Source: an uncultured bacterium
GTDB lineage: Bacteria > Babelota > Babeliae > Babelales > Vermiphilaceae
Length of the DNA: 64,000 bases
Direction: 5' to 3'
Assembly (NCBI GenBank): GCA_963695335.1
Contig: OY968764.1
Location: 832,001 to 896,000, forward strand
Numbering within the stretch: position 1 is the first letter of the stretch; each line of letters starts with the position of its first letter. A program made the translations under genes and the position numbers. The notes beneath the pieces were generated by a model, which did no database searches, was not told the DNA's origin, and saw only the letters and a list, made by a program, of their open reading frames with translations. This document shows positions 18,506 to 50,703 of this stretch, piece by piece.

Positions 18506-19327
18506 ATGAAAAATATATCAAAAATACCAGCATTAGATGTTTCTCATCTTACTGTTGAATACAACCCTACTTCGCTAAAGCTACGAAGGGCAAGTCCCAA
18601 TTTAATTCTAGCCAATTTTTCAGTCACTATTCCACAAGGTGTGATGTGTGGCATTATTGGGCCCAATGGTGCAGGTAAAACAACGCTCATGAAAGCGTTG
18701 CTCCAATTAATACCCATTTCTGCAGGCAATGTGCAAATTTTGGGAAATTCTTTTAAAAATGTGCGCAATAAAATTGCATACATCCCTCAACGCAGTTCTG
18801 TTGATTGGGATTTTCCGATCACCGTGTTTGATATGGTATTAATGGGTTGTTATGGAAGATTAGGCTGGTTTAAGCGTCCAACAAATGCTGATCGTATTAA
18901 AGTATATGAGTCTCTTGCTGCCGTAGGCTTGTGCGAATATGCAGATAAATCAATTAGTGTACTATCTGGCGGGCAACAACAACGAGCGTTTTTAGCACGT
19001 GCGCTCATGCAAGATGCGCATATTTATTTTTTGGATGAACCATTCGCTGGTGTGGATATTGAAGCTGAAAAAATTATTATTACTCTTTTTAAGAAATTAC
19101 GTGATGAAGGCAAAACAGTTATTGTTGTTCATCACGATCTTTTTACGGCATCAACATATTTTGATTATATTTTATTACTGAATAAAACGTGTATTGCTTC
19201 TGGGCCTACTGAGCAAGTGTTAAATGCATTCAATCTTGAATGCACATATGGCCGCATACCCTTCGATACATTTTTTGAAGACAAAAAACACTCAGGGCGA
19301 GCGGAAAGAGAATTCTTAGAGCAATAA
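18506..19327 (+). CDS. troB: Metal ABC transporter ATPase (TroB)
   Basis: GPNGAGKTT, LSGGQQQR, FLDEPFAGVD, VHHDL. Confidence 0.92.
   Translation: MKNISKIPALDVSHLTVEYNPTSLKLRRASPNLILANFSVTIPQGVMCGIIGPNGAGKTTLMKALLQLIPISAGNVQILGNSFKNVRNKIAYIPQRSSVDWDFPITVFDMVLMGCYGRLGWFKRPTNADRIKVYESLAAVGLCEYADKSISVLSGGQQQRAFLARALMQDAHIYFLDEPFAGVDIEAEKIIITLFKKLRDEGKTVIVVHHDLFTASTYFDYILLLNKTCIASGPTEQVLNAFNLECTYGRIPFDTFFEDKKHSGRAEREFLEQ
18565..18594 (+). repeat. Family B 30-bp palindrome in frame in troB
   Basis: CCCTACTTCGCTAAAGCTACGAAGGGCAAG (PTSLKLRRAS). Confidence 0.85.
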
Positions 19328-19403
19328 AAGAAGAGTTAATCCCCGCTCGCCCTGAGTGTTCTTCGTAGCTTTAGCGAAGAAGAATGTATCGAAGGGTATG
19401 CGG
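19252..19403. repeat. Family A inverted pair; left arm forms the troB C-terminus, right arm carries a family B core
   Basis: CCGCATACCCTTCGATACA...CACTCAGGGCGAGCGG / CCGCTCGCCCTGAGTG[TTCTTCGTAGCTTTAGCGAAGAAGAA]TGTATCGAAGGGTATGCGG. Confidence 0.85.
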
Positions 19404-19419
19404 GAAAAAGAAAGTTAAA

Positions 19420-25283: not shown

Positions 25284-25427
25284 TGTTCGTATGTTTCGAC
25301 AAGCTCAACACGAACGGAGAGAGCGTTGAGCGCAGTGTTTACTACTGAGCTTGACGAAGTATCAACACGAACGGATTAGAAAATTTTATATCTCCGTTCG
25401 TACTGAGCCTGTCGAAGTAAACGAACA
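25284..25427. repeat. Family A repeat cluster
   Basis: Begins with 34 bp identical to 15340-15373; inverted arm CCGTTCGTACTGAGCCTGTCGAAGTAAACGAACA; extra internal arm. Confidence 0.85.
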
Positions 25428-26858: not shown

Positions 26859-26861
26859 AGA

Positions 26862-27012
26862 CGTTCGTTTCTTTCGACAGGCTCAAGACGAACGGATAAA
26901 TGCAAGTTTTATATCTCCGTTCGTGCTGAGCTTGTTTAACCCCATCTTCAGTTTCTTTCGATGGGGACCCTGATTGGAACGGAGTGGAAATTGGGGCAAA
27001 AGTAAACGAACG
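26862..27012. repeat. Family A inverted pair with ~61-bp nested insert (family C)
   Basis: Right arm CTCCGTTCGTGCTGAGCTTGT...AAGTAAACGAACG interrupted at ~26936-26996, compared with the intact arm at 25392-25427. Confidence 0.8.
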
Positions 27013-28478: not shown

Positions 28479-30053
28479 TTAAAATGCCGCCCCACCTTTA
28501 AGCCAAAAGCTTGCTTGTCCCATAGTAGTATCAGCGGGTTGGTAAGAGTTCCTTGTATTAATCCCTTCAAATTCAATTTCTGCACCAGCCCCAAAAAATG
28601 GTGTTGCACAATCACAACAATCTGGCCATGAATATGATAAATTTAAGAAAAATTTTTGTGTTACAAGCAATGGTGATGCAGCTGATTTTAAGTTAAGATC
28701 TTTGGTGTTAATGAATACTGGCATTAATCCATCCGGCACTATTTGTTCTGTTTCAAAAATGGTTGCACTACTTTCAGTTGTATTGTTCGGTTGACCTGTG
28801 ATTGGGTTTACAGCAAATTGTACACCTTTTAAGCCATATTTATTGGGTGTAATGCCTTCACGTAATGAAATTTTTTCTCTACTTCTAATCCATCCATTGT
28901 ATCCAATATCAAAAAGAAAATTTTTATACGTGTATCCAAACATAAATACCATATCAACCTGTATATCCACGCGTACATCGCATGCAAGTGTGGTGACGTT
29001 GATTGCGGGAAGCATTCTTTGAGCGAAGACTCCGTCTTCGTCGAATTCTTTAAGAAGGATGTAGCGGCTGAAGAATCCATTTTTACAAAAATCAAATGAG
29101 CGATGTTGTTTTGCTTTGAGCATGTTGGTGAAGTTTGCATCAACCCAAATGATAAGATTTTGTTCATTATCGCTTTCCCACAGTTGATGGTGGCCGGTGA
29201 ACCCAACACCAATTTGCCAATGTTTGCCACAACCTATGCGCGGTTCAAAAAGAAATTCACCTTTGGGGCGTGATCCCGTTGGTGCAGATGCACGGAAATT
29301 GATTCCGGCATGTGATGTTTCTCTATGAATAAAATCGTAACCAAGAACCATTTCTAATGCAGCAAGACCACTGAGCGTTTGTGAGCCACATATTTTCCCA
29401 TACTTTAATTTCTCAACTTCACCAAATGGGTATATGCCGCGCATTGCTTGTGTGTATGAACTGTATGGAGGTGTGACTGCATCTGCTGCCATGTAACCAG
29501 CAGGAAAAGGACTGTTACTTTCATCAATATTTTCTTCAGAAAGTTTGAGATTCCATTTCGTCCACACACCTGGTCCACGGAACTGCATGTATAATCCTGG
29601 AAGCCATTTATTAAGGCCAATATACAGAGCCATATCACATTCAAGATTTTGAATCAGTGGTTTAAAGAATGCATTACTTGCAAATTCAGGAGAAAGACCA
29701 AAGTAATCTGCAAGGAGTTCTTGAGTGCCTTCACGGCCAGGAATTTCACTGCCAGAAAGAGAGAATGTATCAGAATTAAAAAGAGCTAAGGAAATATTTT
29801 TTGGTCTAAGGGATTGGTTGTATTGTGGCGTGAATGCAAGAGCAGAATAATTTTTGTTGGTGTCGTAGCGGTGAATAAAAGGATGCCACCCAACCACGTC
29901 ACGCGCAGCGTTAATATCTTGTGAGCGCGGACTGAAAATAGAAAGACTGCGCAGTTGGTTTACCGCATTAACTTCCGGTTGTTCTGATGAATAAAGGAAT
30001 GATGATGGTAGTGAAGTGAGTAAGAGTACATTTATTATATTTTTTTTCATCAT
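28479..30053 (-). CDS. Putative outer-membrane beta-barrel protein, paralog 1
   Basis: Signal peptide, RSQ, LADYFGL, PTGSRPKGEFLFEP, C-terminal WLKGGAAF. Confidence 0.7.
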   Translation of the reverse strand: MMKKNIINVLLLTSLPSSFLYSSEQPEVNAVNQLRSLSIFSPRSQDINAARDVVGWHPFIHRYDTNKNYSALAFTPQYNQSLRPKNISLALFNSDTFSLSGSEIPGREGTQELLADYFGLSPEFASNAFFKPLIQNLECDMALYIGLNKWLPGLYMQFRGPGVWTKWNLKLSEENIDESNSPFPAGYMAADAVTPPYSSYTQAMRGIYPFGEVEKLKYGKICGSQTLSGLAALEMVLGYDFIHRETSHAGINFRASAPTGSRPKGEFLFEPRIGCGKHWQIGVGFTGHHQLWESDNEQNLIIWVDANFTNMLKAKQHRSFDFCKNGFFSRYILLKEFDEDGVFAQRMLPAINVTTLACDVRVDIQVDMVFMFGYTYKNFLFDIGYNGWIRSREKISLREGITPNKYGLKGVQFAVNPITGQPNNTTESSATIFETEQIVPDGLMPVFINTKDLNLKSAASPLLVTQKFFLNLSYSWPDCCDCATPFFGAGAEIEFEGINTRNSYQPADTTMGQASFWLKGGAAF

Positions 30054-30191
30054 GACAGCTCCTTTTTGTAATCCCCAATTACCATTTTATTTTAATTGGG
30101 GACTTCATTGAAAGAGAATTGATGATGAACTTATTTTCCAGCGCGCTACTTTTTAGTTTTTGGCATCTGTTTCACAAACTCTCAGTATTTA

Positions 30192-30647
30192 TTAATACAT
30201 ACTTTCATCTTGAGTTACAAATTCCGAGGCTTTTAAGCCGTGGTTGTTTTTATCTGATTGTGACGTGGTGTTTATGGGTCTTTGTGGTGATGGAAGTTCT
30301 GGCAATGGTCTTTGTGGCGGTGTGTTGTATTCACTTGTAGAAGAACTCGTTGTTGTAGGTTCCATGTCATTTGGGTGTACTGTGGCATCTATTGGATGAT
30401 GCGTTGATGGAGCGGCTGATGATGGTCTTTGAGGAGGTTGAGTAGAAGAGCTCGTTGTTGTAGGTTCCATGTCCTTTGATTGTACTGTGGTTCTTTTTGG
30501 TTTGGATGATGGAGCTGATGATAATGGCCTTTCAGGGGTGTTAGTATTGGATTGTTTGTTCTGAGTAGGAGAATGAATTGCCATTGGACTCATTGAGCTT
30601 ATGGTACATAATATTATGATTGCAACTATATTTTTAAAACAGTTCAT
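30192..30647 (-). CDS. Secreted Pro/Ser/Thr-rich repeat protein
   Basis: Signal peptide like the 33390 gene; MEPTTTSSST and PPQRP repeats only. Confidence 0.65.
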   Translation of the reverse strand: MNCFKNIVAIIILCTISSMSPMAIHSPTQNKQSNTNTPERPLSSAPSSKPKRTTVQSKDMEPTTTSSSTQPPQRPSSAAPSTHHPIDATVHPNDMEPTTTSSSTSEYNTPPQRPLPELPSPQRPINTTSQSDKNNHGLKASEFVTQDESMY

Positions 30648-30663: not shown

Positions 30664-33390
30664 TTATTTGTGCATCTCTTTTACAAATTCACTCAACTCT
30701 TTTTTCACCGCAGTATCTTTGAGTGATGGTTGTTGCGTATCAATTTTTTTATCAATCAATTGTGCAATAGATTCCAGAGTTATTGGTTGTTTGAGTTTTT
30801 TAATCTCTTGCGATGTTAAAAATTTCTTACTGAGATAATTCATATCCGTTGTTGGTGCAAAGTTAAGAGAGTAAATGAATTTCGCCAGATGAGGATCTTC
30901 AAAGTTATTGATTTCTGTTTCGCATTGATACATATTTCCATTGAATTCAAAAGCGACTTCTAAATGTGCGCGTATAGTCTGTCCAGGAATATGTTTTATC
31001 TGAATAATAAGATTGTTGATGACATTGGTGGCACTTTGTTTGATAGATATACCAGTTACCTTTTTTACTATAAATGTTTGTGGATGAATGCGAGCATTGA
31101 AAGATATAAAGTTAAAGATGAGTGCCTGTAATGGATTTTCAAAACTTATTTCTTTAAATAGGTGAATTGCTTCATGAGATGGATTAATGAGGGCAGGCGT
31201 TGGTGATATTATTGCACAATGCATATTTTTACCAAAATTAAGTGAAGCGTTGATACGCGATGGAGTAATGGTAATAAGGTCAATATTTGTATCACTCAGA
31301 TCTATTGGTCTGTTTTCAATTTCATGAGCTTTAATGAGTGTGTTGGTTATATTTTTTGTTTTTTTACCAAGGGACAGTGCACCAAAAACACCAACACCAG
31401 GAAAACGAATAAAGGGTTGATTTTGTGGATTCATAGCAGGGACAATAGCACTCAGAACATAAGCAAATGGCTCTTGTTCTGTTTTATCTTTTTTTGTTTC
31501 CACAAACGTTTCTGGTCTATCAATAAATATTTTTAAAACTTTGAAGAATGCAGAGAATGGTTTTTTTGATACTACCGTATACGGTGCTTTTGAGTTGAAT
31601 GTTAAGATTAAATGTGGTCCCTGGGTTGGTCTTTCATCCAACCCTTGGGTTGAAACAATAAAATTAACATTAAGTGATGAGAGTGTTTCATTAACAAAAG
31701 TTTGCTTGTATCCACCATCAAGACAACTTGTATAATGTACGTAATACATATATAAGTTGTGGTCAAAGAATGTCATGAGAGATGAAAAATCATCCATTGT
31801 GGTTCCTGCAATGTTCGCTTGTCCTATTACAAGTTGTGAGTCTGGCCAATCTGATTTCCCTTGTAATATTTTTTCGTATTTTTTAATGTTTTCTTCAGCG
31901 ATAATTATATTTTGTTGAGCATCATGGTGTTTTCTATTGTTTTGTAATGCTTCCTGATAAAAAGCAAGATTTTGTTGGTTGATATCTAATTGTTCACGAA
32001 TAGAACCTATCGATTGGTAATACGCTCCTCCATGCCCTCCAAGATATATAATCCATGGTATAACTTCTGCTGGTGTGATTAGTTCCCCATTGCTTTTTTG
32101 TGGGATAAAGAGTGATATGAGGTTATGTATGAATGTAGTTTTATGTTGAGATGTTTCTTGTATTTTGAGTTGTAGCAGAAGATTTTCGGCGCTTAAATTA
32201 TCAATTGGAGTGGTCATTGCTGGATTAAATCCGCATTTTTTTGCTTGATCTTGCAAGTTAAACTGAGAAGCATCTTCTATATTGTCTATAATGTACTGTT
32301 GAGGAATAACGAGTACTAAATCTTCTGATCTATGGAAATAAAAGGTGAAGTGTTTGCTATCAAAATCAATTAAGCTCAGAATAATTAAATGTAATGGATT
32401 TTCATGTAGCTTATATGATGTCAGTAGTTTCTGGGCAAATGGGTCCGATTGGTTGCTGTTTCGTAACATCTGTAAATTATTTTCGCCGATTGTGTGTCTT
32501 AGATGAGTAATGATTCCCAAGATATTGCTGGACATTATTATGGGGGCGGCTTGCTCATAGAGTGCAAGTAGTGCATCTTGCACCAGAAGTCGTGCTGATC
32601 CCTGTAAGGTTTCTTCTTTTTCTGGATCAAGTAACATAATCAGGTCATGAGTTGTAAAATGTTTTTGTGTACGCTCTATAATAGATTTTTTTTCCTTTAC
32701 TTGCTTGCCCTTTGTAGCTTCACCGTGTCCTCCGAAGCTTTCAGCGAAGGATGGAGCGGAGTAGGGTTCATCTTTTTTGTTATTGCCTGTTGGGGTCATA
32801 TAAATCATTGCCACAGCTTCTAAAAGAGCTGTAGTGTCTTCATCAGAAAGATGTTGTGCTCTTATAAATTCAATAAATGGGTGAGTGAATGTATTATTGA
32901 TCAATATATCATGATCAGACATTGTGGCTGTTATGTAATCCAGTACTTCGGCATATCTACTTGATTGTTTGCTTTGAGTAGAGGAGCTGGCTGTTGTGGA
33001 TTCCATGAGGGGTGGAAGTGCTGGCAATGTTCTTTGAGGTGGCAAACTATTGAAGGGTCTGTTTTGAGTACTGGAACTCGTTGTTGTGGGTTCCTTTTGG
33101 TGTGGTTTTGATGGAGGTGTTGGTAATGCTCTTTTTGTTGATGGATTGTTGTATTGTATGTCTTGAATAGAAGAACTGGCTGTTGTAGATTCCAGTGGAG
33201 CTGGAAGTGCTGCTCGTGGTCTTTGCGGTGGATTTGTATGTAATGGTCTATTTTGAGCAGATGCACTCGTTGTTGGTCTCATCACTGGGCTCGGTTTTGA
33301 TGGACGTGCTGGCTTTTCGGGCTCCATTGAGTTAATTGAGGTTATGCACAGTAGTGCTATAGTGACAAGCATATTTTTAAGATAATTCAT
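30664..33390 (-). CDS. Secreted protein, PST repeats plus putative caspase-fold (clan CD) protease domain
   Basis: WIIYLGGHGG and YVHYTSCLDGG; paralog of 33421-35556. Confidence 0.65.
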   Translation of the reverse strand: MNYLKNMLVTIALLCITSINSMEPEKPARPSKPSPVMRPTTSASAQNRPLHTNPPQRPRAALPAPLESTTASSSIQDIQYNNPSTKRALPTPPSKPHQKEPTTTSSSTQNRPFNSLPPQRTLPALPPLMESTTASSSTQSKQSSRYAEVLDYITATMSDHDILINNTFTHPFIEFIRAQHLSDEDTTALLEAVAMIYMTPTGNNKKDEPYSAPSFAESFGGHGEATKGKQVKEKKSIIERTQKHFTTHDLIMLLDPEKEETLQGSARLLVQDALLALYEQAAPIIMSSNILGIITHLRHTIGENNLQMLRNSNQSDPFAQKLLTSYKLHENPLHLIILSLIDFDSKHFTFYFHRSEDLVLVIPQQYIIDNIEDASQFNLQDQAKKCGFNPAMTTPIDNLSAENLLLQLKIQETSQHKTTFIHNLISLFIPQKSNGELITPAEVIPWIIYLGGHGGAYYQSIGSIREQLDINQQNLAFYQEALQNNRKHHDAQQNIIIAEENIKKYEKILQGKSDWPDSQLVIGQANIAGTTMDDFSSLMTFFDHNLYMYYVHYTSCLDGGYKQTFVNETLSSLNVNFIVSTQGLDERPTQGPHLILTFNSKAPYTVVSKKPFSAFFKVLKIFIDRPETFVETKKDKTEQEPFAYVLSAIVPAMNPQNQPFIRFPGVGVFGALSLGKKTKNITNTLIKAHEIENRPIDLSDTNIDLITITPSRINASLNFGKNMHCAIISPTPALINPSHEAIHLFKEISFENPLQALIFNFISFNARIHPQTFIVKKVTGISIKQSATNVINNLIIQIKHIPGQTIRAHLEVAFEFNGNMYQCETEINNFEDPHLAKFIYSLNFAPTTDMNYLSKKFLTSQEIKKLKQPITLESIAQLIDKKIDTQQPSLKDTAVKKELSEFVKEMHK
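32704..32766 (-). repeat. Family B nested in family B, in frame (63 bp)
   Basis: CTTGCCCTTTGTAGCTTCA[CCGTGTCCTCCGAAGCTTTCAGCGAAGGATGG]AGCGGAGTAGGG. Confidence 0.75.
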
Positions 33391-33420: not shown

Positions 33421-35556
33421 TTAGATTTTTGCATCAATAAACTGTGCAATAGCATCCAAATTGTTTGGTTTAAGTTTGGCAACCTCTTGTGGGGTCAAAA
33501 ATTGTTGGGCAATGGAATTGATGTTAGTTGGCGAAAAAGAGATTTTTTGCATATTTTTGAGTATCTCATTAAGATCGTCAAATGTTTTTATGGCTACTGA
33601 ATATTGATATACATTTTTATTCAACTCAAAAGCAACATGCACATTTGCACCTAACTTAGCAATTGGAATATCATGTGATTGTAAAGGTTGAGTTTGTACT
33701 GATGGTTTAGGTGAAGCTCCAGGACCTGTGCCCATCATGCCATCTATTTTAATGATGAGATTGTTTATGTTCCCTTCTTGTGTTTGTAATTTTTTAACAA
33801 CAAAAAGTTGTGTATGCATTTTTGGATTAAGACGTACAAAATTAAAAATCAATTCTTGTAGTTGAATATTCCAACTGATTTCTTTAAAGACGCGACCTGT
33901 TTGGCGAGATTGAGTCATCACTGTGGGAGTTACGATTGCGCAATCGGTATTGTCACCAATATTTATTGCAACATTAATTCGCAATGGATTTACCATAATA
34001 ATACCAATATCTTTATTACTCATATCTATGGGTCGGTGTTCAGCTTCATGCTTTTTTATTATTCTTTCTGATAAGACTTCTGTATTTTTACTGATAGAAA
34101 GAGCACCAAACACACCTTTTCCCGGAAAGCGCACAAATGGTTGGTTATTTTCAGTTTCATGGGGATTAAGAGCACGTATAATTTTTGCAACGGGTTCTTT
34201 TTTCCCTTCTTTTATTTTTATAAACTCTTTTGGTTGACCAATGTAATGTCTGAGTAACTTAAAGAAGTCAGTAAAAGGGTGATACTGTAATTGTATATAA
34301 GGTTGTATGGAACTAAATCGCATAGATAATGGTATTCCTGTTGTTTCTTTTTCACCTAATCCTTCTGATGATACAATAAAATCAACGTCTAATGATGAGA
34401 GTATATCGTTCACAAACAGTTGATTATACCCACCAGAAAAACAGGTTGTATAATGGAGATAGGCAACATTAAGGTTTTCATCAAAAAAGTGCATTAATTG
34501 TGAAAATTCTTGTAATGATATTCCCACAACATTGCCTTTTTCTGGTACAACTTGATACGTATTACCAACAACAAGATAGGTTGGCCCACCATGTCCAGAG
34601 ATGTATTCATCCCATTCAGTATCTTGCTCTGGAGAAATTAATTTTCCATATTTTTTTTGAGGAATAAACAGTGCCGTTAGGTTATCGATAAATTTACTTG
34701 GACCTATAGTTTGTTGCCTGTCCTCCGTAGCCTTGGCGTAGGAGGGCTGAGTTTTTAATTGCTGCAGAAGATTTTCAGGGGTTGTATTGGTAACTCTTGT
34801 AACAATGTTTGAATGAAAACCACATGCTTTGAGTTCATCTTCTGAGCTGAACGATGGGCTGTTAGAAAAGCTGGTACTCATATAACGTTCTGGAATCACT
34901 AATACTAAATGATCTGTTTTGTGGAAGTAATAGTGTAAACTTTTATCATCAAAATTAATAAGACTCATTAAAATAACTGTTAATACTGATTCATTGATAT
35001 TGTATTGTTGCACAAGTTGTTGAGCAAATTGCTGTACCGTATTATAGGAACTGTTACGTAATTTTTGAAAATTTTGTTCACCTATTCTTTGTCTGATGAT
35101 GGTAATAATTTCTAAAATATTACTGCTCATGATAATTGGTGCTGCTTGTTCGTAGAATCCCATGAGAGCATTATTCACCATGGCGTTACCACCACGATTG
35201 ATTGTTTCTACTTTCTTTGGATCAAGGAGCATGATGAGGTTATGCGTTGGAGGGTATGCTTTTATTGAAGAAGGTTGTTTAGTTTCTTTTTTTTCAGGAG
35301 CTTTTTGTACTGGTTGTTTAATGATTGTTGGTTTTTGAGGTTGAATTATTTTTTTTTCTGCTGATGGTTTTGGGGAGATTAGTTTTTGCTGAGGTTGTAT
35401 TACAGGTTTTGGCTGAGGTATGGGTTGAGTTGATGGCTGTGGTTGCATTTGAGATCTATTAGGTTGCGCTGTTGGTACTGATTTTTTCATTTGTTTTGCA
35501 TGTGTAAATTGTATGCAAAACAATGACGTGAGAATAATGTTTTTTAATAGCTTCAT
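33421..35556 (-). CDS. Secreted protein, P/Q-rich linker plus putative clan CD protease domain
   Basis: EYISGHGG and YLHYTTCFSGG; shares LIMLLDP, YEQAAPIIMSSNIL, NQPFxRFPGxGVFGALS with its paralog. Confidence 0.65.
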   Translation of the reverse strand: MKLLKNIILTSLFCIQFTHAKQMKKSVPTAQPNRSQMQPQPSTQPIPQPKPVIQPQQKLISPKPSAEKKIIQPQKPTIIKQPVQKAPEKKETKQPSSIKAYPPTHNLIMLLDPKKVETINRGGNAMVNNALMGFYEQAAPIIMSSNILEIITIIRQRIGEQNFQKLRNSSYNTVQQFAQQLVQQYNINESVLTVILMSLINFDDKSLHYYFHKTDHLVLVIPERYMSTSFSNSPSFSSEDELKACGFHSNIVTRVTNTTPENLLQQLKTQPSYAKATEDRQQTIGPSKFIDNLTALFIPQKKYGKLISPEQDTEWDEYISGHGGPTYLVVGNTYQVVPEKGNVVGISLQEFSQLMHFFDENLNVAYLHYTTCFSGGYNQLFVNDILSSLDVDFIVSSEGLGEKETTGIPLSMRFSSIQPYIQLQYHPFTDFFKLLRHYIGQPKEFIKIKEGKKEPVAKIIRALNPHETENNQPFVRFPGKGVFGALSISKNTEVLSERIIKKHEAEHRPIDMSNKDIGIIMVNPLRINVAINIGDNTDCAIVTPTVMTQSRQTGRVFKEISWNIQLQELIFNFVRLNPKMHTQLFVVKKLQTQEGNINNLIIKIDGMMGTGPGASPKPSVQTQPLQSHDIPIAKLGANVHVAFELNKNVYQYSVAIKTFDDLNEILKNMQKISFSPTNINSIAQQFLTPQEVAKLKPNNLDAIAQFIDAKI
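34717..34746 (-). repeat. Family B 30-bp palindrome in frame
   Basis: 29/30 identical to the ftsK copy; encodes PSYAKATEDR, absent from the paralog. Confidence 0.9.
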
Positions 35557-40575: not shown

Positions 40576-40618
40576 GACGATCCTTTTTTATAACATCTTT
40601 TACTAAGTAGTATTTTCC

Positions 40619-40660
40619 AGCGCTCGTCCTGAGCCTGTCGAAGAATTTCTTCGAGCGCTC
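40619..40660. repeat. Family A repeat
   Basis: AGCGCTCGTCCTGAGCCTGTCGAAGAATTTCTTCGAGCGCTC. Confidence 0.85.
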
Positions 40661-40714
40661 AATAAATATAGTACTAGCATTAGCAGAGTTGAATAAAAAA
40701 AGGCAATGATACGC

Positions 40715-40750
40715 AAAAAAAGGCCTCTCATAGAAGAGAGACCTTTTTTT
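40715..40750 (-). terminator. Intrinsic terminator
   Basis: AAAAAAAGGCCTCTC/GAGAGACCTTTTTTT hairpin downstream of the ankyrin gene. Confidence 0.65.
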
Positions 40751-40768
40751 TGCTCAAACATTATAAAT

Positions 40769-41344
40769 TTAAGCAGCTTTTGCAGGACTTGTATGTTTAT
40801 ACAATAGATCTAAGATTTGAGGTTTGTTTCGAGCGTAATCAAAGCTTGTTTTGCCATTTGGATCTTTTAGATATGGATTAGCGCCGTGTTCAAGAAGTAA
40901 TTTAACCATTGACACATGGGAAAATTCACAGGCTACCATGAGAGAACTTACAGGAGTTAAATTGGGATTGGCATTATATTTTTCAAGTAATGTTTTTGCT
41001 GCTAATAAATAATCTTTTTCAGCCGCTATATCAAGCAATGTACTTTGAGTTATATCAGGAGCTGTATATTCAGTAACACTAATAACACCTTTCATTGAAT
41101 CAAGAATATGAAAAATAGCGGGCCAATCGATATTGTTTTTAAACACATACTCAAGCCCTTGTTGATCAACTATGAGAGCATCGAGCATTGCATACACTGG
41201 TTTACGTGCTAATTCTTTTTGACGAGCTAGTTTTCTACGTTGTACTTCCTCTACTGATAGTTGTATGTTTTTCATTGATTTTGCATTGATGCTAGCTATC
41301 ATCCCTAACGCTATCACACCTGATAATAAATGTACTTTTTTCAT
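40769..41344 (-). CDS. Secreted ankyrin-repeat protein
   Basis: TLLDIAA, SSLMVACEFSHVSMVKLLLEHGANPYLKDPNGKT; signal peptide. Confidence 0.85.
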   Translation of the reverse strand: MKKVHLLSGVIALGMIASINAKSMKNIQLSVEEVQRRKLARQKELARKPVYAMLDALIVDQQGLEYVFKNNIDWPAIFHILDSMKGVISVTEYTAPDITQSTLLDIAAEKDYLLAAKTLLEKYNANPNLTPVSSLMVACEFSHVSMVKLLLEHGANPYLKDPNGKTSFDYARNKPQILDLLYKHTSPAKAA

Positions 41345-41432
41345 GAGACTTCCCCTTTTTTGAAAATTAACGATATTTTATTTCAATTATAATAGTAACA
41401 GGTGGGGGGGGGTAGAAATCAAGGCTTATTTG

Positions 41433-42745
41433 CAGGGCGATCGCATTTAAAACCCTGGATTTATAAGGGTATCCAAAATAAAATTAGGGTCACTATTTCC
41501 TCTTCGTAATTTATTTCCCAAGCTGAAATCTGAGGTTTTTCTGGTTAAAAGTGAATTAACGAAGGCACTGAGAAAATTAAAATTTTGAGCCCCATGGCCT
41601 TTTCTTAAGCTTCTTTGATCATCGTTAAAATTGACATCAAGACTTCTGTGAAGATGGTTTTCGATGCTCCAATGGGCACGAATATAACCCAAGATACGTT
41701 CGGGATCTGCTGGTAGGCTGCTGATAAAAAGACGTATATTATTTGCATTTCTTCTTTTACCTTCAACCTTTGATTCTATAAGAGTTATTGATTTTAGATT
41801 GGTCCATTCTTTCTTTTGATAGATCCAATCAATATATTCGGTTGAATAGCACCTTCGGATTTCTTTTCTACCATGCTTATAATCGATAGTTTCATGATAT
41901 TTATATGCAATTTCTTCATGTTCACCTTGTGCGAGTGTACGTAAAAAAAGGTCAATATCTTCGTAAAGTAAACGATTATTCAGTTTAACTGGCAAGATAT
42001 AATCACCGCCTCGTGCGATAATTTTTTTTACAAATGCTTTTCTTGTACCCATCGCATCAATAGTGATTACTTTTCCCTTTAAATTTAGCGTATCTAATAC
42101 GCGATTCATACCGGTTAATTCATTATTGCCATCTGGAACACGTGCTTGCTCAAGAACTATTTTTGATGAAGGACTGAATGCATTTATTAACGTAAACGGA
42201 TTGTTTGAAGACCAAGCTTCTATGACTTTGCCATCAATTGCGATATGGTCGCTATTATCATGCAGTGCAACTTCGAGCCAAAGCACTAACCAATCTTTTA
42301 ATTCTTTTGGATTTAAAAGTAAAAAGACACGATGGAAGGTATCATGTGATGGAATACCATTTGGAAGCCATATTTTATCATGTAACCATTCTTCATGATC
42401 ATGTGCAAATCTCACCACATGTACCCAGTTTTGTGCACCGGAAAATATAGCTAAAATTGCAATCAAAAGTATTACGACAAGTTCATGTTTTTTACATCGA
42501 TCAATTCTTGGATCAGTGACTTCTTCTAAGCATGCTATAAGATTTGCCAAATGGTCGTAGTTATGCCATATTTCATGCAGTATGATGCTCATTAAAAATC
42601 TCCTTTTTCAAGTGGGACGTTTTTTTTGAGCATCATACTTTTTTTATTTTGTTCCGTCTTTATCCTCCAGCCTCCAATACAAATAGTGTATCAAGTGAAT
42701 TTCGAAATTTCCGTTAAAATCAGAGTTTTAAATGCGATCGCCCTG
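41433..42745 (-). mobile_element. ISAs1-family insertion sequence (1313 bp)
   Basis: Perfect 21-bp terminal IRs CAGGGCGATCGCATTTAAAAC; 9-bp target duplication GCTTATTTG (41424-41432, 42746-42754). Confidence 0.95.
41447..42592 (-). CDS. ISAs1-family transposase
   Basis: DPR, GIPSHDTFHRVF, IAIDGK, ITIDAMG, HGRKEIRR, RAHWSIENHLH. Confidence 0.95.
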   Translation of the reverse strand: MSIILHEIWHNYDHLANLIACLEEVTDPRIDRCKKHELVVILLIAILAIFSGAQNWVHVVRFAHDHEEWLHDKIWLPNGIPSHDTFHRVFLLLNPKELKDWLVLWLEVALHDNSDHIAIDGKVIEAWSSNNPFTLINAFSPSSKIVLEQARVPDGNNELTGMNRVLDTLNLKGKVITIDAMGTRKAFVKKIIARGGDYILPVKLNNRLLYEDIDLFLRTLAQGEHEEIAYKYHETIDYKHGRKEIRRCYSTEYIDWIYQKKEWTNLKSITLIESKVEGKRRNANNIRLFISSLPADPERILGYIRAHWSIENHLHRSLDVNFNDDQRSLRKGHGAQNFNFLSAFVNSLLTRKTSDFSLGNKLRRGNSDPNFILDTLINPGF

Positions 42746-42869
42746 GCTTATTTGGAAAAAAATTATGAAAAATTGCACATTCTTGCTACTAGTGCTTATA
42801 TTATTGCATAATTGAATATGTACAAAAGGGTGGCTTTGTTCAAAAATAGGTAAATAAAGGGAGGGAGAG

Positions 42870-43682
42870 ATGAAAAAATATATAATTATAGCTTTTTTGT
42901 GTACGCATTTTTGTTTTACAGGTGATATAAATAAATCAACAACGTATCTAGGTTTATGTACAGAATTTTGGGATTTTGATAAACCAGTTCCATCTGTTCA
43001 AGAATATAAATTTTTTCGAAAATATGTAGCAAACTCTTCTGGACCAATTTTAGAGCCAATGTGTGGTTCTGGTCGTTATATTATTCCGCTTTTAGAAGAA
43101 GGATTTAATGTAGAGGGTTTTGATGCTTCACCATTTATGTTTGAAGCAATGCGTAAAAAATGTGCAGCAAAAAATTTATCCCCACATATTTGGGAAAAGT
43201 ATTTAGAGCAATTTCCAGAAACAAAACAATATAATCTTATTTTTATTCCTGATACATCGTTTTGTCATTTTTTAACGCGAGCAGATATAAAAAACGCTTT
43301 ACAGAAAATTTATTCTTTACTGTTACCTAAAGGTATTTTTGTTTTTGACCTTCAAACTATTTATGAACAGTTAGAACATATTGGTGTTTGGACAGGAAAA
43401 GTGTTTAGAAAGAATGATACTACAACGATTGTTGAAAATAGGCTTATTTTGCCAAGAGAAAATTCGGTGGTACCTGTAATGTTGAGGTATGAATTAGTTG
43501 AAAATGGTTTACTTGCCAGAACAGAAATGGAATATTATCGGATTAAATTGTTTCATCCAACAGAAATAGATGATTTATTAAAAGAAGTTGGTTTTTCAAA
43601 AATCAAAAAAATAAAAGCACATCAGCATGGACACGCGCCATCTTCTCATGATGATATGATTGTGTATGAATGTACAAAATAG
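42870..43682 (+). CDS. Class I SAM-dependent methyltransferase with signal-like leader
   Basis: ILEPMCGSGR, VEGFDAS, LLPKGIFVFD. Confidence 0.85.
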   Translation: MKKYIIIAFLCTHFCFTGDINKSTTYLGLCTEFWDFDKPVPSVQEYKFFRKYVANSSGPILEPMCGSGRYIIPLLEEGFNVEGFDASPFMFEAMRKKCAAKNLSPHIWEKYLEQFPETKQYNLIFIPDTSFCHFLTRADIKNALQKIYSLLLPKGIFVFDLQTIYEQLEHIGVWTGKVFRKNDTTTIVENRLILPRENSVVPVMLRYELVENGLLARTEMEYYRIKLFHPTEIDDLLKEVGFSKIKKIKAHQHGHAPSSHDDMIVYECTK

Positions 43683-43692
43683 AAATAAGAAA

Positions 43693-43714
43693 AGGCTGAG
43701 CAAAAACTCAGCCT
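43693..43714. terminator. Intrinsic terminator
   Basis: AGGCTGAG/CTCAGCCT hairpin plus T tract between convergent genes. Confidence 0.7.
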
Positions 43715-43748
43715 CTTTTTTTCATTTAAATGATTAATGCGATACGCA

Positions 43749-45641
43749 TTAATCAAAAGATACTCCACCTTTAATAAACACTGCCCATTCAGAAAGTGCA
43801 CAGCTGATACCATTATTACAAGAACCATCATTATTAGAATCATTGCTGTGATTGCCAAATTCAGCATCAAAACCAATGCCAAGATATGGGATCCAATCTT
43901 CACGGTCTATCCATGTGTAACTAAAGTGACTAAATATTTTGTTAGATGATCCGCGTGTTTCTGCACCTTCTATATTTAAATCAGTGATGCTAATGAATAC
44001 TGGTTGAATAGATGTGTTAATTTGAGGACCATCGATATTAGTAGCATGAATAATAGCAGAACCAAAGCCATCGCCTGTTTGAGCAAGTTGTGCATTGTCA
44101 ACGGCAAGGTTGGTGATTGCAGGCATATCAGCTGTTGCTTTTGGAATATTGGTACCTTGATAGATTGTTGCACCAATTCCTGATGTTGATGTGCCACCCA
44201 TTTCTGTACCAGATAATGGAACATTAGTAACACCACTTCCAGGAGTGCCTATTTGAGCAAAACCAAATGTTTGCGCATCACCTTTTAATGCCCAAGTGTT
44301 TTCAGGGAATGCTGGAGAATTGTCACAATCTTTTAAAGTTATATGTTCATGAGATACTCCCCAGTAGTTGTATCCAATATCCCATGAAAAACCACGATAT
44401 GTGTAATTGAGCATGGCAACAATATCACCTTGTACTCCAACACTGACGTTAACATTACGAGTACTGAAATTTGCTACTGGAGAGTATTCTGAGTTGAACT
44501 GTGATGTTGCCTGTGTAATAGTACCATCTGCATTACCAAAAAGATTTGGTGGTGTAGGTTTGAGATTCATTTTTTCTGCAAGCATATAACGGCTGTTTGG
44601 TTTACCAATAAGATCAAATGATCTTTGTTGTGATGCATTAAACAAGTGAGTTACATCCGCTTCAAAAATAAAATCAAGATGTTGTTCATCATCTTGACTG
44701 CGCCACATTGTCCAATGTGCGCTTAATCCTATACCAAGTTCCCAATGTTTACCATTACCCACGTATGGTTCAAAAAGAAATTCAGCGTGAGGACGGTTGC
44801 CGGTAGGAGCAGCTGCTTGGACATTGAAACCAACATGATAATCTTCATGGAGATAATTCCATCCAAATTCACCACGTAAGTCAGCAAATCCAGTAAGGCT
44901 GTGTTGGCAATTGGTTATTTTTGATTTGAGTAAAGGGTCAACGGTAATTCCTGGAACAATGACGGTTGTATTTCCGCTGAAAAATGCAAGTGCTGAAGGG
45001 AGTAATGTGTTTGCAGGGACTTCATTTGCACTGAAAAATCCTGGAGCATAACCAACTGTTCCTGGTGCTATGTTTGTTTCACATGGGTTAAGACTTGTTT
45101 TGTTATTAACAACGGGGCCATAGATTCTGAAGTACATTCCTTTTACCCATTCATCAAGGCCAACATAGAGGTAAAAATCTACCAGAAAATCATGGAGCTT
45201 AGGTTCAAAACTTATGCTACTTTTGAAATCACGGGGAAGATAGAAATTTTCTGCCATCCATTCAAACGGAGATCGATTGGGAACTAACGAACCGGAAATA
45301 ATAAGAGATTCACTACAACCATTGCTGCAATCATTTGTTGCAGGACTGTTAATTAAACTTGCGCCAAAAAAACATTCTGCAATATCGTTGCCATTAAATG
45401 TTTGATCATATTGTGGTGTTATATTAAATGTGCCATAAAATGATTCCATATCATGAAGATATACATGATGGCTTGTGGTGCCTACTAATTTACGTGGTAC
45501 GTTTCTACTTTGTGAACGCCATTGTACAAATGGTACTGTGCGCAATTCTGTGTTTGGGGATGAGCCGCAATCTGCTTGTAATCCTATGGTGTATGCAGTT
45601 GCTGCGAATAATAATAATTTTTGTGAAATTCGTCTCTTCAT
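43749..45641 (-). CDS. Putative outer-membrane beta-barrel protein, paralog 4
   Basis: Start MKRRISQK; WRSQ, MAENFYLPRDF, PTGNRPHAEFLFEPYVGNGKHWELG, WAVFIKGGVSFD. Confidence 0.7.
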   Translation of the reverse strand: MKRRISQKLLLFAATAYTIGLQADCGSSPNTELRTVPFVQWRSQSRNVPRKLVGTTSHHVYLHDMESFYGTFNITPQYDQTFNGNDIAECFFGASLINSPATNDCSNGCSESLIISGSLVPNRSPFEWMAENFYLPRDFKSSISFEPKLHDFLVDFYLYVGLDEWVKGMYFRIYGPVVNNKTSLNPCETNIAPGTVGYAPGFFSANEVPANTLLPSALAFFSGNTTVIVPGITVDPLLKSKITNCQHSLTGFADLRGEFGWNYLHEDYHVGFNVQAAAPTGNRPHAEFLFEPYVGNGKHWELGIGLSAHWTMWRSQDDEQHLDFIFEADVTHLFNASQQRSFDLIGKPNSRYMLAEKMNLKPTPPNLFGNADGTITQATSQFNSEYSPVANFSTRNVNVSVGVQGDIVAMLNYTYRGFSWDIGYNYWGVSHEHITLKDCDNSPAFPENTWALKGDAQTFGFAQIGTPGSGVTNVPLSGTEMGGTSTSGIGATIYQGTNIPKATADMPAITNLAVDNAQLAQTGDGFGSAIIHATNIDGPQINTSIQPVFISITDLNIEGAETRGSSNKIFSHFSYTWIDREDWIPYLGIGFDAEFGNHSNDSNNDGSCNNGISCALSEWAVFIKGGVSFD

Positions 45642-45856
45642 ACTCTTCTTCTCCTTGAAGGTGATACATATATTTACGTGCCTTAATATAGTACGTTTGC
45701 ATGATGTTTGTAAAGAAGAAAGCATCAACACGCTCTTTCTTTAATGTGGGTTATAGCAAAAAGACCTAGCATTTAAGCTAGGCCTTTTTGAGTATTCGTT
45801 TTTTGTTTGCTTTGTTAAGGTAAATTACTTAACACAACAATAATGAGTATCCGTTA

Positions 45857-47911
45857 TTAGTGGAATGATACCCCACCTTTAACTTCAACACCCCATTGAG
45901 TGAGTGCACATTTTTTACAGCTATTGCAACCGCTACCGCTATTATTATTTGTTGTTACTGTTGTTACAGTTGTGTTGTTGCTGCAATCATCACCGCCACC
46001 ACAATGGTCGCCAAATTCAGCACTGAAACCTGCTCCTAAGTATGGAACCCATCTGTCAGAGCAATCTCTCCATGTGTAGTTGAAGTGAGTGAACACTTTG
46101 TTAGAAAGTCCGCGTTGTTTAGCACCTTCTATATCAAGATCATCGATAGATATAAATACTGGTGGATTAGAAGTTTGGATTGGTGTTGATGTTGCTCCTG
46201 TTGCATCAAATACAAATAAAGGAGTAGGTGTTGGAGGAGTTGTTGCTACATCATTATATACAGCAGGAATGTGGCTATCTACACCAAGGTTAGTTAATGG
46301 ATTACCCACTGGAGTTGCTGCGTTTGCTGCAGTAGCATTAGTACCAGTAAAGATTGTTGCTCCACTTTCTGTTGCACCAAGACCTAAAACAAATCCAGTA
46401 CCATTAGAAGGATTATAACCTACTACACTTGCATCACCTTTAAGCGCCATGTTTGTAGGGAATGGAGTGATTATAGCTGCGCTGCTGCAAGAATTGTTGT
46501 TGCTGCAGTCGTTGTTGCAATCAAGGCTGATTTTTGAACATGACATGCCCCAGAAGTTATATCCAAGATCCCATGAGAATCCGCGGTGTGTATAGTTGAA
46601 CATTGCAACTACGTCACCTTGTACACCAAAGCCAACTTTTACTTCACGAGTACTGAAGTTTGCAACTGGCATGTATACACCTGCTGTAACATTAGGGGCT
46701 GCAAAAGTGGAAGTATTAGGAATAAGTTGTGCATCTGCAGCAGGAGTTCCGAGTTGTTCAGCAAGCATATAACGGCTGAGTGGTTTACCTTTAAGATCAA
46801 AGGTCATTTTTTGTTTTGCTTTGAATAAGTGAGTTATATCAGCTTCAACGATAAAGTTGAATGATCTATCTCCGTCTTCACTTTCCCACATTTTCCAAGC
46901 TCCACCGATACCACCACCAAGTTCCCAATGTCTACCGTTACCAACATATGCTGGTAATAGGAATTCAGCATTTGGACGAGTACCTGTTGGAGCTGCTGCT
47001 TGGATGTTGATTAAGAAACGATATTTATCTGCAATATAGTTCCATCCAAATTCACCACGTAATTCAGCAAATCCTGTTTTGTGGTGTGAGTCACCATTAC
47101 AGCTGTTGCTGCAGTTGTTGTTATTGTTGTTGTTGAGGTTGCAATCAGAGAATTTTGCAAAGTTAAGTGGTTGTATAGTCACAGCTTCATTAGCATATTT
47201 TGGAAGTTGACATCCGCCAAAGAAGTTAAGTGCGCTTTGGAAAAGTGATGAGTTTGGAACAGCGGTTGCGATGTCAAAATAACCTTGTGGATATGATCCA
47301 GCTGCAGTTCCTTGACTGATTATATTTTCATCTGCACGTAAGCTTGATTTGTTCCAAACAACTGGTCCGTATAGTCTGAAGTAAAGACCATTAACCCATC
47401 TATCAAGCCCAACGAACAAGTTGAAATCAACGATAACGCTTTGAACTTTTGGGCTGAAGGAAATAGCACTTTTGAAATCACGTGGAAGGAGGAAGTTTTC
47501 TGCCATTAATTCAGTTGCAGCTCTTCCTGTTCCAAGACCGTTTGCACCAAGACCAGAGATGATGATAGCACTGCTATTGCAGCTATTGCTGCAATTGTTG
47601 TTTGTTGTTACCGGTGAGTTTACTAAGGTATCACCAAAAAGGCATTGTGCTATTTGGTGGCCTCTGAATGTTTGATCGTATTCTATATCGATGTTGAATG
47701 TGCCGTAACGTTCATCCATGTCGCCTTGGTAAACTGCATAGCTCGTTGTACCTTCGAGTTTACGAGCCATGTTTCTACCTTGTGAACGCCATTGAATGAA
47801 TGGAATAACGCAATTGCTACCGTTATTATTGTTGCTACAGCAGTCAGCGAGTGCGACTGTTGCCGTGCTACCAAGCACGAGTAATGAAAACAATTTTGAA
47901 TATTGTTTCAT
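45857..47911 (-). CDS. Putative outer-membrane beta-barrel protein, paralog 5 (Cys/Asn-rich loops)
   Basis: AAAAGGAG RBS, WRSQ, MAENFLLPRDF, VGNGRHWELG, WGVEVKGGVSFH. Confidence 0.7.
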   Translation of the reverse strand: MKQYSKLFSLLVLGSTATVALADCCSNNNNGSNCVIPFIQWRSQGRNMARKLEGTTSYAVYQGDMDERYGTFNIDIEYDQTFRGHQIAQCLFGDTLVNSPVTTNNNCSNSCNSSAIIISGLGANGLGTGRAATELMAENFLLPRDFKSAISFSPKVQSVIVDFNLFVGLDRWVNGLYFRLYGPVVWNKSSLRADENIISQGTAAGSYPQGYFDIATAVPNSSLFQSALNFFGGCQLPKYANEAVTIQPLNFAKFSDCNLNNNNNNNCSNSCNGDSHHKTGFAELRGEFGWNYIADKYRFLINIQAAAPTGTRPNAEFLLPAYVGNGRHWELGGGIGGAWKMWESEDGDRSFNFIVEADITHLFKAKQKMTFDLKGKPLSRYMLAEQLGTPAADAQLIPNTSTFAAPNVTAGVYMPVANFSTREVKVGFGVQGDVVAMFNYTHRGFSWDLGYNFWGMSCSKISLDCNNDCSNNNSCSSAAIITPFPTNMALKGDASVVGYNPSNGTGFVLGLGATESGATIFTGTNATAANAATPVGNPLTNLGVDSHIPAVYNDVATTPPTPTPLFVFDATGATSTPIQTSNPPVFISIDDLDIEGAKQRGLSNKVFTHFNYTWRDCSDRWVPYLGAGFSAEFGDHCGGGDDCSNNTTVTTVTTNNNSGSGCNSCKKCALTQWGVEVKGGVSFH

Positions 47912-48258
47912 AATTAAACTCCTTTTACTCATTACTTAATCGAGATATTTTTAGGACATCTTGAGCGAATATTATTTTTCTGTGTGTGATCTCTCCTTTC
48001 TTTGAATTACATTATTTATTTTTTTATTCAATCATATTTTTGTATCACTGTACAATATAGTATTGTGAGATCTAAGTTGTAAAGAAAAATTATAAGAAAT
48101 TATGCTGTGGAACGACTTTTACAGTTTTAAAAATGGCTAAAACCCTTTGTTTACTAGGTTATTTTTATAAAATTTTTTATATTTCACCATGGGGTGGATC
48201 TTTCATGAAGGTAGTAAAAGTACATTTTTTTTATAAAATTTTTTAAAGGAGTTTTACA

Positions 48259-50703
48259 ATGAATATATTTTTTTTAGATAAAAACAGGTTGATTTGGTTG
48301 GTGGGAGCTACTTTTTATGGAGGAATTATTATTTTTTTAATAATTTCTCTTTTTTCGTATAGTCCAACTGATAGTTGTTTGCTTTATATTTCGAGTGCGG
48401 GAAACACTGTTTCTAATTGTGGTGGCTCCCTTGGCGCGCATCTTGCTGCGCTTTTGTTTTATTTTTTTGGAGGAGCATCATTTTTATTACTTATTCCATT
48501 GCTTGTTCTTGGATTGATTGTTTTTACCAAAAAAACATTGCGTGGTAATTGGGAGCGCTTGTGTGCTGCTGTATATATAATGTGTGTTGGGGCTGCATTA
48601 CTTACTACGTATGGTATGGATGTTGCAGTCAGTCCTTATCCTGGTGGATTGATAGGATTGCGGTTTGCGCAAATGTTATTACACTATTTTGATACTATTG
48701 GACGAATTCTTTTTTTATATGGCAGTCTGTGCGCGAGTGTGATTATTGTTTGCCGTTGGTCATTTATGTTTGCAGTACAATATGGCATTGGTGTAGCACA
48801 TCATATATATGTGTTAATGAAAAAATATCGGGTGGTTAGTAAAACCGTATATGCTTTTGGAGTGTGCGTACGTGCATTGTTTGTGCGTCTTCCTATTATA
48901 GTAGTGCAATTTATTATGTCTTTATTAAATGGAACAGCCTTTCATGAAACGGGGTTAATGCATCCTGAAGATGAAGTGAGTGATAACGCTATTGAAGATT
49001 TTGGTTCTACTCAGTTTGGTTGGGGTGAAGAATGTCATTTTACTGAGCAGCAAAAGAGTGATGAAGTTAATTATGTTGTTGTGTCATTGCAACAGCATGA
49101 AAGTTTTGGTGTTTTAAAGTTGCCTGTCACATCGGCTATATTATCATTGTCGCAAAAGAAATCTGCTACAGTATCACATGTGCATCATAAAACTGTTTCT
49201 GTTTCAATTCCATTGCCTACCCAAGTAATAGAAAAGTTAAAATCAATATCGTCACTCAAAAAACAAGCTCCTCAATACGCATTGCCGCACATGGATATTT
49301 TTATTGCAGAAAAACATGTAGAAGATCACAACGTTGAAAAAGAGTTACAAGAGCGTGCACAAGTTCTTGAAGATAAATTAAAACGGTTTGGCGTTAATGG
49401 GCAAGTGGTTGCTATTAAGCGGGGGCCTGTTGTAACCGTGTTTGAGTATCAGCCTGATATTGATACAAAATTAAGTAAAATTATTGTTCTTGAAGATGAT
49501 CTTGCTATGGCACTGCAAGCAATGAGTATTCGTATTATTGCACCAATTCCAGGAAGATCAGTTGTGGGCTTTGAAGTTTCTAATACAACACGTCATGATG
49601 TTCTTTTTTCGCAAATTACACGATCGTCAGCGTACACACAATTTTCAGGTAATTTACCACTTGTGCTTGGTAAAGATACCATTGGTGATGCAGTGATAGT
49701 TGATTTAGCACGTATGCCACATTTATTAATTGCAGGTTCAACAGGGTCAGGAAAATCAGTAGCGCTTAATGCTGTACTGATAAGTTTATTGTGTAAGTTA
49801 AGTCCTGATGAACTGAAACTTATTTTAATAGATCCCAAACGTTTAGAGTTTGCAGCGTTTACTGATATTGCTCATTTACTGTTTCCGATTGTCACGAGCC
49901 CTGTGTATGCAGCTCCTGTTTTAAGATGGGTGGTGCAAGAGATGGAAGATCGTTATGAAAAGATGGCGGAATGTGGGGCTCGTAATATAAATGATTATAA
50001 CGCACGCACCCTTCAACAAGTTTCCTCCTACGCCAAGGCTACGGAGGACAGGCAGGGCGAGCGGAAAGAGATTGATCCTATGCCATATATTGTTGTAGTT
50101 ATTGATGAGTTAGCAGATTTAATGCTTACTGCAGGACGTGATATTGAAGATTTGATTACCCGTATTACACAGATGGCGCGTGCGGCAGGAATTCATATGA
50201 TTGTTGCAACTCAGCGGCCTTCAGTGGATGTTATCACCGGGCTTATTAAAGCTAATTTCCCAAGTAGGATATCATTCAGAGTTGCATCACGTATTGATTC
50301 ACGCACTATTTTAGATACTGTAGGAGCTGACCGTTTACTTGGTCGAGGAGATATGCTTTTTCTTGATGCGGCAACATCACAATTAAGACGCGTGCACGGT
50401 GCATATGTTTCTGATAAAGAGATTGAACAGGTTGCTGATCATATTAGAGCACAAAGAAAAGTTGAATATCTTGATATGCAACAAGTAACTGTGTTGCAGG
50501 GGCAAGATGCAGGAACAATAGACGATGTGCTCTATAAAGATGTACGAGAATTTTTGGGTGATATAGATGAGGTGTCCATTTCTCTTTTGCAGCGAAAATT
50601 CAGAATTGGATATAATAGATCAGCGCGGATTATTGAAATGTTAGAAGCGCAGGGGTTGATTATGCCGCAAGATGGAAGTAAAACACGAAAAGTAATACGT
50701 TAA
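48259..50703 (+). CDS. ftsK: DNA translocase FtsK
   Basis: N-terminal TMs, PHLLIAGSTGSGKS, IDELADLM, ATQRPSVDVITG, gamma domain LQRKFRIGYNRSAR. Confidence 0.96.
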   Translation: MNIFFLDKNRLIWLVGATFYGGIIIFLIISLFSYSPTDSCLLYISSAGNTVSNCGGSLGAHLAALLFYFFGGASFLLLIPLLVLGLIVFTKKTLRGNWERLCAAVYIMCVGAALLTTYGMDVAVSPYPGGLIGLRFAQMLLHYFDTIGRILFLYGSLCASVIIVCRWSFMFAVQYGIGVAHHIYVLMKKYRVVSKTVYAFGVCVRALFVRLPIIVVQFIMSLLNGTAFHETGLMHPEDEVSDNAIEDFGSTQFGWGEECHFTEQQKSDEVNYVVVSLQQHESFGVLKLPVTSAILSLSQKKSATVSHVHHKTVSVSIPLPTQVIEKLKSISSLKKQAPQYALPHMDIFIAEKHVEDHNVEKELQERAQVLEDKLKRFGVNGQVVAIKRGPVVTVFEYQPDIDTKLSKIIVLEDDLAMALQAMSIRIIAPIPGRSVVGFEVSNTTRHDVLFSQITRSSAYTQFSGNLPLVLGKDTIGDAVIVDLARMPHLLIAGSTGSGKSVALNAVLISLLCKLSPDELKLILIDPKRLEFAAFTDIAHLLFPIVTSPVYAAPVLRWVVQEMEDRYEKMAECGARNINDYNARTLQQVSSYAKATEDRQGERKEIDPMPYIVVVIDELADLMLTAGRDIEDLITRITQMARAAGIHMIVATQRPSVDVITGLIKANFPSRISFRVASRIDSRTILDTVGADRLLGRGDMLFLDAATSQLRRVHGAYVSDKEIEQVADHIRAQRKVEYLDMQQVTVLQGQDAGTIDDVLYKDVREFLGDIDEVSISLLQRKFRIGYNRSARIIEMLEAQGLIMPQDGSKTRKVIR
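50009..50064 (+). repeat. Family A repeat with nested family B (50023-50052), in frame in ftsK
   Basis: CCCTTCAACAAGTT[TCCTCCTACGCCAAGGCTACGGAGGACAGG]CAGGGCGAGCGG. Confidence 0.9.

Follow-up and report, generated by a model that had tools for sequence, protein, structure and literature searches.

Nested hairpin repeats and small GIY-YIG nuclease genes in a genome of the Vermiphilaceae

Introduction

How do short repeats come to lie inside other repeats, apparently at chosen positions? The question is raised by a 64,000-nucleotide stretch of DNA from an uncultured bacterium of the Vermiphilaceae (Babelota; GCA_963695335.1, contig OY968764.1, positions 832,001 to 896,000), hereafter the window, in which hairpin repeats of three families, A, B, and C, split one another's arms and loops. 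The genome that holds the window, G000, is a single contig (C1) of 1.37 Mb with 35.7% G+C, and also has three short open reading frames (ORFs) of the GIY-YIG type: GIY1, GIY2, and GIY3. We call the receiving hairpin the host and the inserted hairpin the passenger. The nesting is real, strongly non-random, and rule-governed.

Anatomy of the repeats

Each of A, B, and C is a one-strand hairpin repeat that bears a tag and has a mismatched G·A loop. In the A unit, a CGYTCR tag precedes a 4-bp stem, which leads through a GA/GA mismatch into a short loop; the stem triplets covary in compensating pairs across ten types in G000. The 346 A arms of this genome comprise 216 simple arms, 82 with a long variable apex (A2), and 48 with passengers, a tally that missed some C-bearing arms. 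Most arms form inverted pairs, and the close pairs number 83 head-to-head and 52 tail-to-tail. The A2 apices are a graded series, although in relatives full B stems occupy this position. F1 and F2 are A-type hairpins bearing a GTTTA tag.

The B unit is 30 nt long, with a 4-5-nt YTG tag, a 6-bp stem, and GWA/GWA internal loops. G000 has 98 intact copies, 53 of them within ORFs, where the reading frame is preserved and one frame is favored. The C monomer joins a GGGGW tag to a CCCC...GGGG hairpin with GA-rich loops. C is usually a head-to-head dimer, in which GGGGWCCC(C) is common to both monomers. Free copies of C were sought and make up about half of its 68 loci.

Nesting of the repeats

An earlier note, made from the window alone, had described B in A, B in B, and C in A. 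All four sites that it cited match the sequence. The arms concerned, with related sites, are as follows (window coordinates).

19252..19304 (-), long-apex A hairpin (an A2 arm), the left-hand one of a pair whose tags face inward
19344..19397 (+), A2 arm with a B-like core (19361-19379) in its apical hairpin (19355-19384)
25284..25420 (unstranded), A pair plus an extra A arm bearing F1 as an inverted passenger (25337-25361)
26862..26895 (-), A arm in the gltX-fabD spacer, paired with the arm that bears C
26917..27012 (+), A arm split by C
26936..26999 (+), C, two hairpin monomers joined head to head (26936-26996), with a tail of 3 nt
32704..32766 (+), outer B, 63 nt including its passenger, in frame within ORF 30664-33390(-)
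32723..32755 (+), inner B (32723-32754, plus A at 32755) in the loop of the outer B; site R|GCG
50008..50064 (-), A arm within ftsK, split by B
50023..50052 (-), B inserted at the 5' TG|A(A/G) step (site 1) of the ftsK arm

In ftsK (Pfam FtsK), CAAGTT at 50017-50022 is followed by the 30-bp B and then by CAGGGCG, and the frame is kept. A 151-nt contig from an independent sequencing run spans 49897-50047 with zero differences and therefore confirms one ftsK junction outside this assembly; it was the single informative piece among the contigs of sequencing runs, which yielded no joints. In the gltX-fabD spacer, the insert of about 61 bp is C, which is followed by the tail. C and the tail substitute for 2 nt of the A arm, and the right junction is the 3' G|A. 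The close relative G002 (140 contigs, 703 kb of about 1.0 Mb), which we used for orthologous sites, has this arm without C; at 25284..25420 it has the outer A pair only. The core at 19361-19379, read earlier as a B in the loop of A, does form the apical hairpin of an A2 arm, but it need not be a clean insertion and may instead be a variant of the apex. In G002 the site is occupied by a complete nested A2.

Copies were counted across G000 after 6 false B hits, 8 B-like A2 apices, and 1 false C center had been dropped by eye. The nested set and the list of C in A were curated partly by eye; ORF calling was mechanical. Nested B copies (in A, B, or C) number 42 of 98, far above the 1.2 expected from a repeat footprint of 1.2%, and 41 of the 42 lie on the strand of the host. 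When look-alike composites were collapsed, 20 of 76 B copies were nested (intergenic, 10/30; p = 5e-5), 19 of the 20 on the host strand. C lies within A at 30 of its 68 loci, against about 3 expected, and always in the same orientation. Nesting reaches depths of A>B>B and A>C>C>B.

Random insertion, with nests surviving because repeats are harmless landing places, would accord with the mostly intergenic position of the repeats and with the frame-keeping of B in ORFs. The enrichment nonetheless persists within intergenic DNA (25/45 nested, 3.4 expected) and within ORFs (17/53, 0.2 expected), and neither the strand agreement nor the two reused positions in A would be explained. This account is already largely refuted, and we consider it very improbable.

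Junctions and insertion sites

The junctions follow a rule, given here with a bar at the point of insertion. B enters A at TG|A(G/A) (site 1, 12 copies), B at CG(A)|AG (8 copies), and C at CGA|AG; the B junction classes of G000 recur in G002. In all three hosts, A, B, and C, the entry point of B is the 5' G|A. At its right end, C has a tail of 3-4 nt and joins the A following the 3' G of the host mismatch, again with A, B, and C as hosts. Its left junction is variable, so that between 2 nt and the whole host hairpin is replaced. From the junction tables, therefore, most junction classes fall on the G|A step of the mismatched loop, ±1 nt. Nested junctions show a target duplication of 0-1 nt and C deletes host bases, unlike the target-site duplication of classical miniature inverted-repeat transposable elements. 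The left half of the site-1 junction matched in 15 of 41 genomes surveyed, from five families, a minority being A2-apex forms; related genomes in this survey are not independent.

An alternative is that a few chance composites, each of one origin, spread as units or were pasted into arms by short-homology conversion, the site preference then reflecting common descent. Indeed, G000 has seven near-identical A+F1+B blocks, with the same family in G002, several GIY1 genes have identical nested inserts in both flanking arms, and the orientation of C in A is fixed. The 31 site-1 composites of G000 and G002, however, pair 16 host types with 13 insert types in 24 combinations, and their hosts have only the left TG and the right A in common. 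Host and insert distances are uncorrelated in G000 (Mantel rho 0.07, not significant) and correlated in G002 (rho 0.29, p = 0.004). Host-specific stems abut the insert, the right side sharing only 1-3 nt; one G|A step is used across the unrelated hosts A, B, and C; and the enrichment outlasts collapsing (20/76). We judge this alternative unlikely as a full account. Composites spreading as fixed units, which the earlier note had set against its own view, are thus part of the picture: repeated insertion and unit spread both occur.

Insertion into hairpin DNA in general fared differently. Three free B copies of the window are placed as follows.

16802..16831 (-), free B within a znuA-like gene
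18565..18594 (-), free B, a 30-nt insertion relative to G002
34717..34746 (+), free B that G002 lacks, within ORF 33421-35556(-)

Across G000, 38 of 46 free B copies have G at -5/-6, against 35%, and no other site feature was seen. The empty sites of the 46 copies fold no better than nearby DNA and show no hairpin enrichment, so hairpin DNA as a general target was rejected. The earlier note's view that insertion targets hairpins is right in a narrower sense, that of nested junctions specific in strand and position. Replication-strand bias was likewise rejected: A has none, and the mostly antisense position of free B in ORFs (26 vs 11) is more simply explained by stop codons in the frames of the other strand.

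Order of insertion

The comparison of G000 with G002 covered 178 repeat clusters, of which 64 had both flanks in G002; 33 of these were aligned. Few sites polarize because most aligned sites are wholly different or empty. G002 has another orthologous A pair without C (377853), a C without the B present in G000 (573451), and a B in B where G000 has a plain B (483506). Upstream of GIY1, the arm is free of passengers in G000, bears B in G002, and bears C in L294. Among ftsK orthologs, those of G002 and G008 retain nothing but a decayed A arm, B pieces occur in G003 and a C piece in G009, and G010 is empty. Orthologous arms thus occur with and without the passenger and, provided that precise loss is rare, the host was in place first at these sites.

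The earlier note had extended this order to whole families, with A older than B and C. That holds only site by site because A-type hairpins also enter B: F2 lies inside B at two sites, and in G002 a whole A2 lies inside a B-like apex. Among the 41 genomes, the B pattern matches in 29, A in 18, and C in 9, C alone being genus-restricted. A as the oldest family is ruled out by these A-type insertions and the wider B pattern, and the earlier note was wrong on the general age order.

GIY-YIG genes linked to the repeats

Two of the three GIY-YIG genes and a neighboring repeat are placed as follows.

C1 565524-565808 (-), GIY1, A-linked, outside the window
62797..63075 (unstranded; window), pairs of B hairpins in a 155-bp tandem duplication upstream of a GIY-YIG gene
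63128..63370 (+; window), GIY3, predicted 80-aa single-domain GIY-YIG nuclease of the B-linked clade

Pfam PF01541 is the single domain of the 95-aa and 80-aa proteins. The catalytic residues, read from the sequence, are Y7, Y17, and E64 in GIY1 and Y5, Y17, and E63 in GIY3. The best matches in the PDB were UPF0213 structures (1zg2, 1ywl) for GIY1 and weak UPF0213/Slx1 matches for GIY3; a search of NCBIfam assigned the three proteins to no family. Dependentiae/Babeliales records hold the nearest named homologs of GIY3, which makes that phylum the likely home of the genome.

GIY1 of G000 lies between inverted A arms, and inverted A flanks the gene on both sides in 16 of the 19 GIY1-clade loci examined (of 28 matches). 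GIY2 and GIY3 lie downstream of inverted B pairs, and a loose B lies upstream, on one side, of 55 of 80 GIY3 homologs from several phyla, compared with 12 of 74 control windows; 39 of the 80 have a tRNA within 400 nt. In a quick tree with many open forks, the A-flanked clade (18 rows, support 95) and the B-flanked clade (61 rows, support 96) are distinct, and three proteins with NTS-like flanks stand apart from both. Across the 41 genomes, a GIY hit and B occur together in 26, neither in 11, B only in 3, and a GIY hit only in 1. In the congener G001, 95% complete, the patterns used matched neither A nor B nor C, and there was no GIY hit. The structure-specific nuclease expected by the earlier note thus has candidates in small GIY-YIG genes tied to the repeats, one clade with weak Slx1 matches, but not the general hairpin targeting attributed to it.

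It is also conceivable that no nuclease acts: polymerase would stall at G·A hairpins on single-stranded DNA (ssDNA) and switch template through 1-4-nt microhomology, the GIY-YIG genes being passengers. The targets CCTG|, CTTG|, and YTTG| resemble the B tag, several ending in a tag-like YTG, composites contain tandem tags, and the length of apex replaced by C varies. Against this, repeats and nucleases pair clade by clade across phyla, genomes without GIY genes are mostly without repeats, and the site-1 tag occurs twice and is not shared. We consider this explanation quite improbable.

A RAYT was sought in G000 and none was found, so RAYT as the mover was rejected; the only Y1 hits are three equal-scoring IS200-like transposase copies (C1 369218, 574578, and 1166633), without A, B, or C flanks.

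Several loci bear on these genes and repeats. In L020 (genome G006), the gltX-fabD spacer holds a complete A-GIY1-A cassette in place of the C-bearing A pair that G000 has there. L024, L025, and L027, from the same order, have GIY-YIG genes with NTS/dRS3-like flanks and probably encode true Ssn nucleases; only L027 matched the SRM pattern. In G000, a B-type hairpin sits on tRNA/tmRNA 3' ends, its stem using the CCA end, in 14 of 35 by pattern and 18 by eye. At four more such ends a C-like monomer replaces most of the B-type hairpin, and C-type monomers are joined to tRNA-linked B remnants at the same 3' G|A step as C in A. At C1 612200-612500, B and C replace hairpins within an apparent RNA gene, which to judge by its ends is putatively that of RNase P RNA; G002 has another hairpin at the B site. 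Finally, a longer repeat family, of about 130 bp or more, starts with a C-type monomer, has GGGGTGTGGGGTG-type hairpins, and occurs in inverted pairs.

C1 189400-190050, 573600-573860, and 1099580-1099990, copies of the longer repeat family

Other features of the window

In dprA, A arms lie in frame at 15759-15800 and 16407-16480. The region 61534-63370 has a tyrosine integrase gene (-), a stub resembling a tRNA 3' end, the duplicated B pair, and GIY3, and is possibly the edge of an integrated element; the stub has no second copy in the genome. A cluster of paralogous ORFs (520-710 aa, DNA 60-80% alike) spans 28479-47932(-), and a Pfam search with one paralog gave no match. A tRNA was the sole Rfam match in the window.

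Comparison with known systems

In the available text of Chenal et al. (2025; PMC11893778), the GIY-YIG nuclease SsnA cuts ssDNA only, on the cognate strand only, a few nucleotides upstream of the hairpin. Mutants at Y6, Y17, and E64 are described; a role of Ssn in repeat expansion is only proposed, cutting being shown and not spread. The word 'nested' is not used in that text. The present loci resemble Ssn (cd10448) and its NTS/SRM repeats in having an 80-95-aa single-domain GIY-YIG gene with catalytic Tyr, Tyr, and Glu, a repeat-gene-repeat layout, and tagged, oriented hairpins that are also dispersed in hundreds of copies. They differ in that the degenerate SRM pattern has 0 hits in G000, stems carry G·A mismatches, and the B clade is tRNA-lodged. 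Membership of GIY1 and GIY3 in cd10448 is unlikely because of their UPF0213/Slx1 structure matches and their separation in the tree from the NTS-like-flanked proteins. As there is no SRM match and the proteins probably belong to other subfamilies, the system was not classed with Ssn/NTS-SRM.

In Di Nocera et al. (2013; PMC3733652), a few families of CGTC/GTAG-tagged repetitive extragenic palindromic (REP) elements are reported to be inserted within other palindromes. Those elements, with an unpaired tag by an 8-9-bp stem, share with ours the tag-plus-hairpin plan and the head-to-head and tail-to-tail dimers. Of the tags here (CGYTCR, YTG, GGGGW), the CGYTC of A resembles CGTC, but those of B and C are different. 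Several of our families nest recursively at defined steps. Like REPIN/RAYT (TnpA-REP) systems, as far as the available descriptions go, the present one keeps non-autonomous hairpin pairs beside a single small enzyme gene; unlike them, it has no RAYT.

Rickettsia palindromic elements insert in frame into coding genes. The in-frame insertions here into housekeeping genes (ftsK, dprA, znuA-like) are similar, but the sequences differ and B is merely 30 nt long. A literature search, with most subscription papers outside its coverage, turned up neither these nests nor the junction rule, and no report of hairpin repeats associated with UPF0213/Slx1-like genes.

Proposed mechanism

We regard it as somewhat probable, on the combined analysis of junctions and gene neighborhoods, that A, B, and C spread with the help of small GIY-YIG nucleases and by mutual capture at nicks in G·A loops, some composites being copied whole. 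By analogy with SsnA, each nuclease would bind its own hairpin as ssDNA and cut a few nucleotides 5' of it, and this cut would set the 5' end of the passenger. Host hairpins would be nicked at the G·A step. The nick would then be repaired by joining or template-switching to the passenger, leaving no real target-site duplication (0-1 nt). Afterwards, some composites were likely copied as whole units. In a bolder form, UPF0213/YhbQ-like and Slx1-like mini GIY-YIG nucleases would mobilize REP-like hairpins by cutting the sheared G·A steps of ssDNA hairpins, and nuclease-hairpin replicators would parasitize one another and tRNA 3' ends, recursively, by set rules, and without a transposase. This form is possible, and we put it forward tentatively.

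Several results weigh against capture at G·A loops with nuclease help, besides the correlation in G002. B enters the A loop before TYGAA in 15 copies, of about three lineages, and B at R|GCG in 5 copies, neither being a G|A step, and junction positions are uncertain by 1 nt. About half of the B copies lie at ordinary non-hairpin sites. A shows no leading- or lagging-strand bias (160/346). The order of insertion is polarized by two or three genomes, leaving room for precise loss. A occurs without a GIY1-clade hit in G005, G011, G017, G035, and the 61%-complete G016. A C-linked nuclease was sought in 120 metagenome loci; a single GIY1 ortholog turned up, and no small gene recurred. Sheared G·A pairs confer stability; the composites' folding z-scores from standard folding were unremarkable in 4 of 5 folds, and are uninformative because sheared pairs lie outside the folding model.

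Implications

These observations bear on how REP-like repeats spread in genomes without RAYT. In nested copies, real insertion events can be read to the base at either end. These copies predict cut sites, at G|A in the mismatched loop and 4-6 nt 5' of the B stem. Two GIY-YIG subfamilies that fall outside the published Ssn pattern also gain candidate substrates. Turnover of the repeats rewrites loops of essential genes, such as ftsK. If the proposed mobilization is true, the UPF0213/YhbQ-like and Slx1-like mini GIY-YIG nucleases, long without a known function, would gain a role in moving these hairpins.

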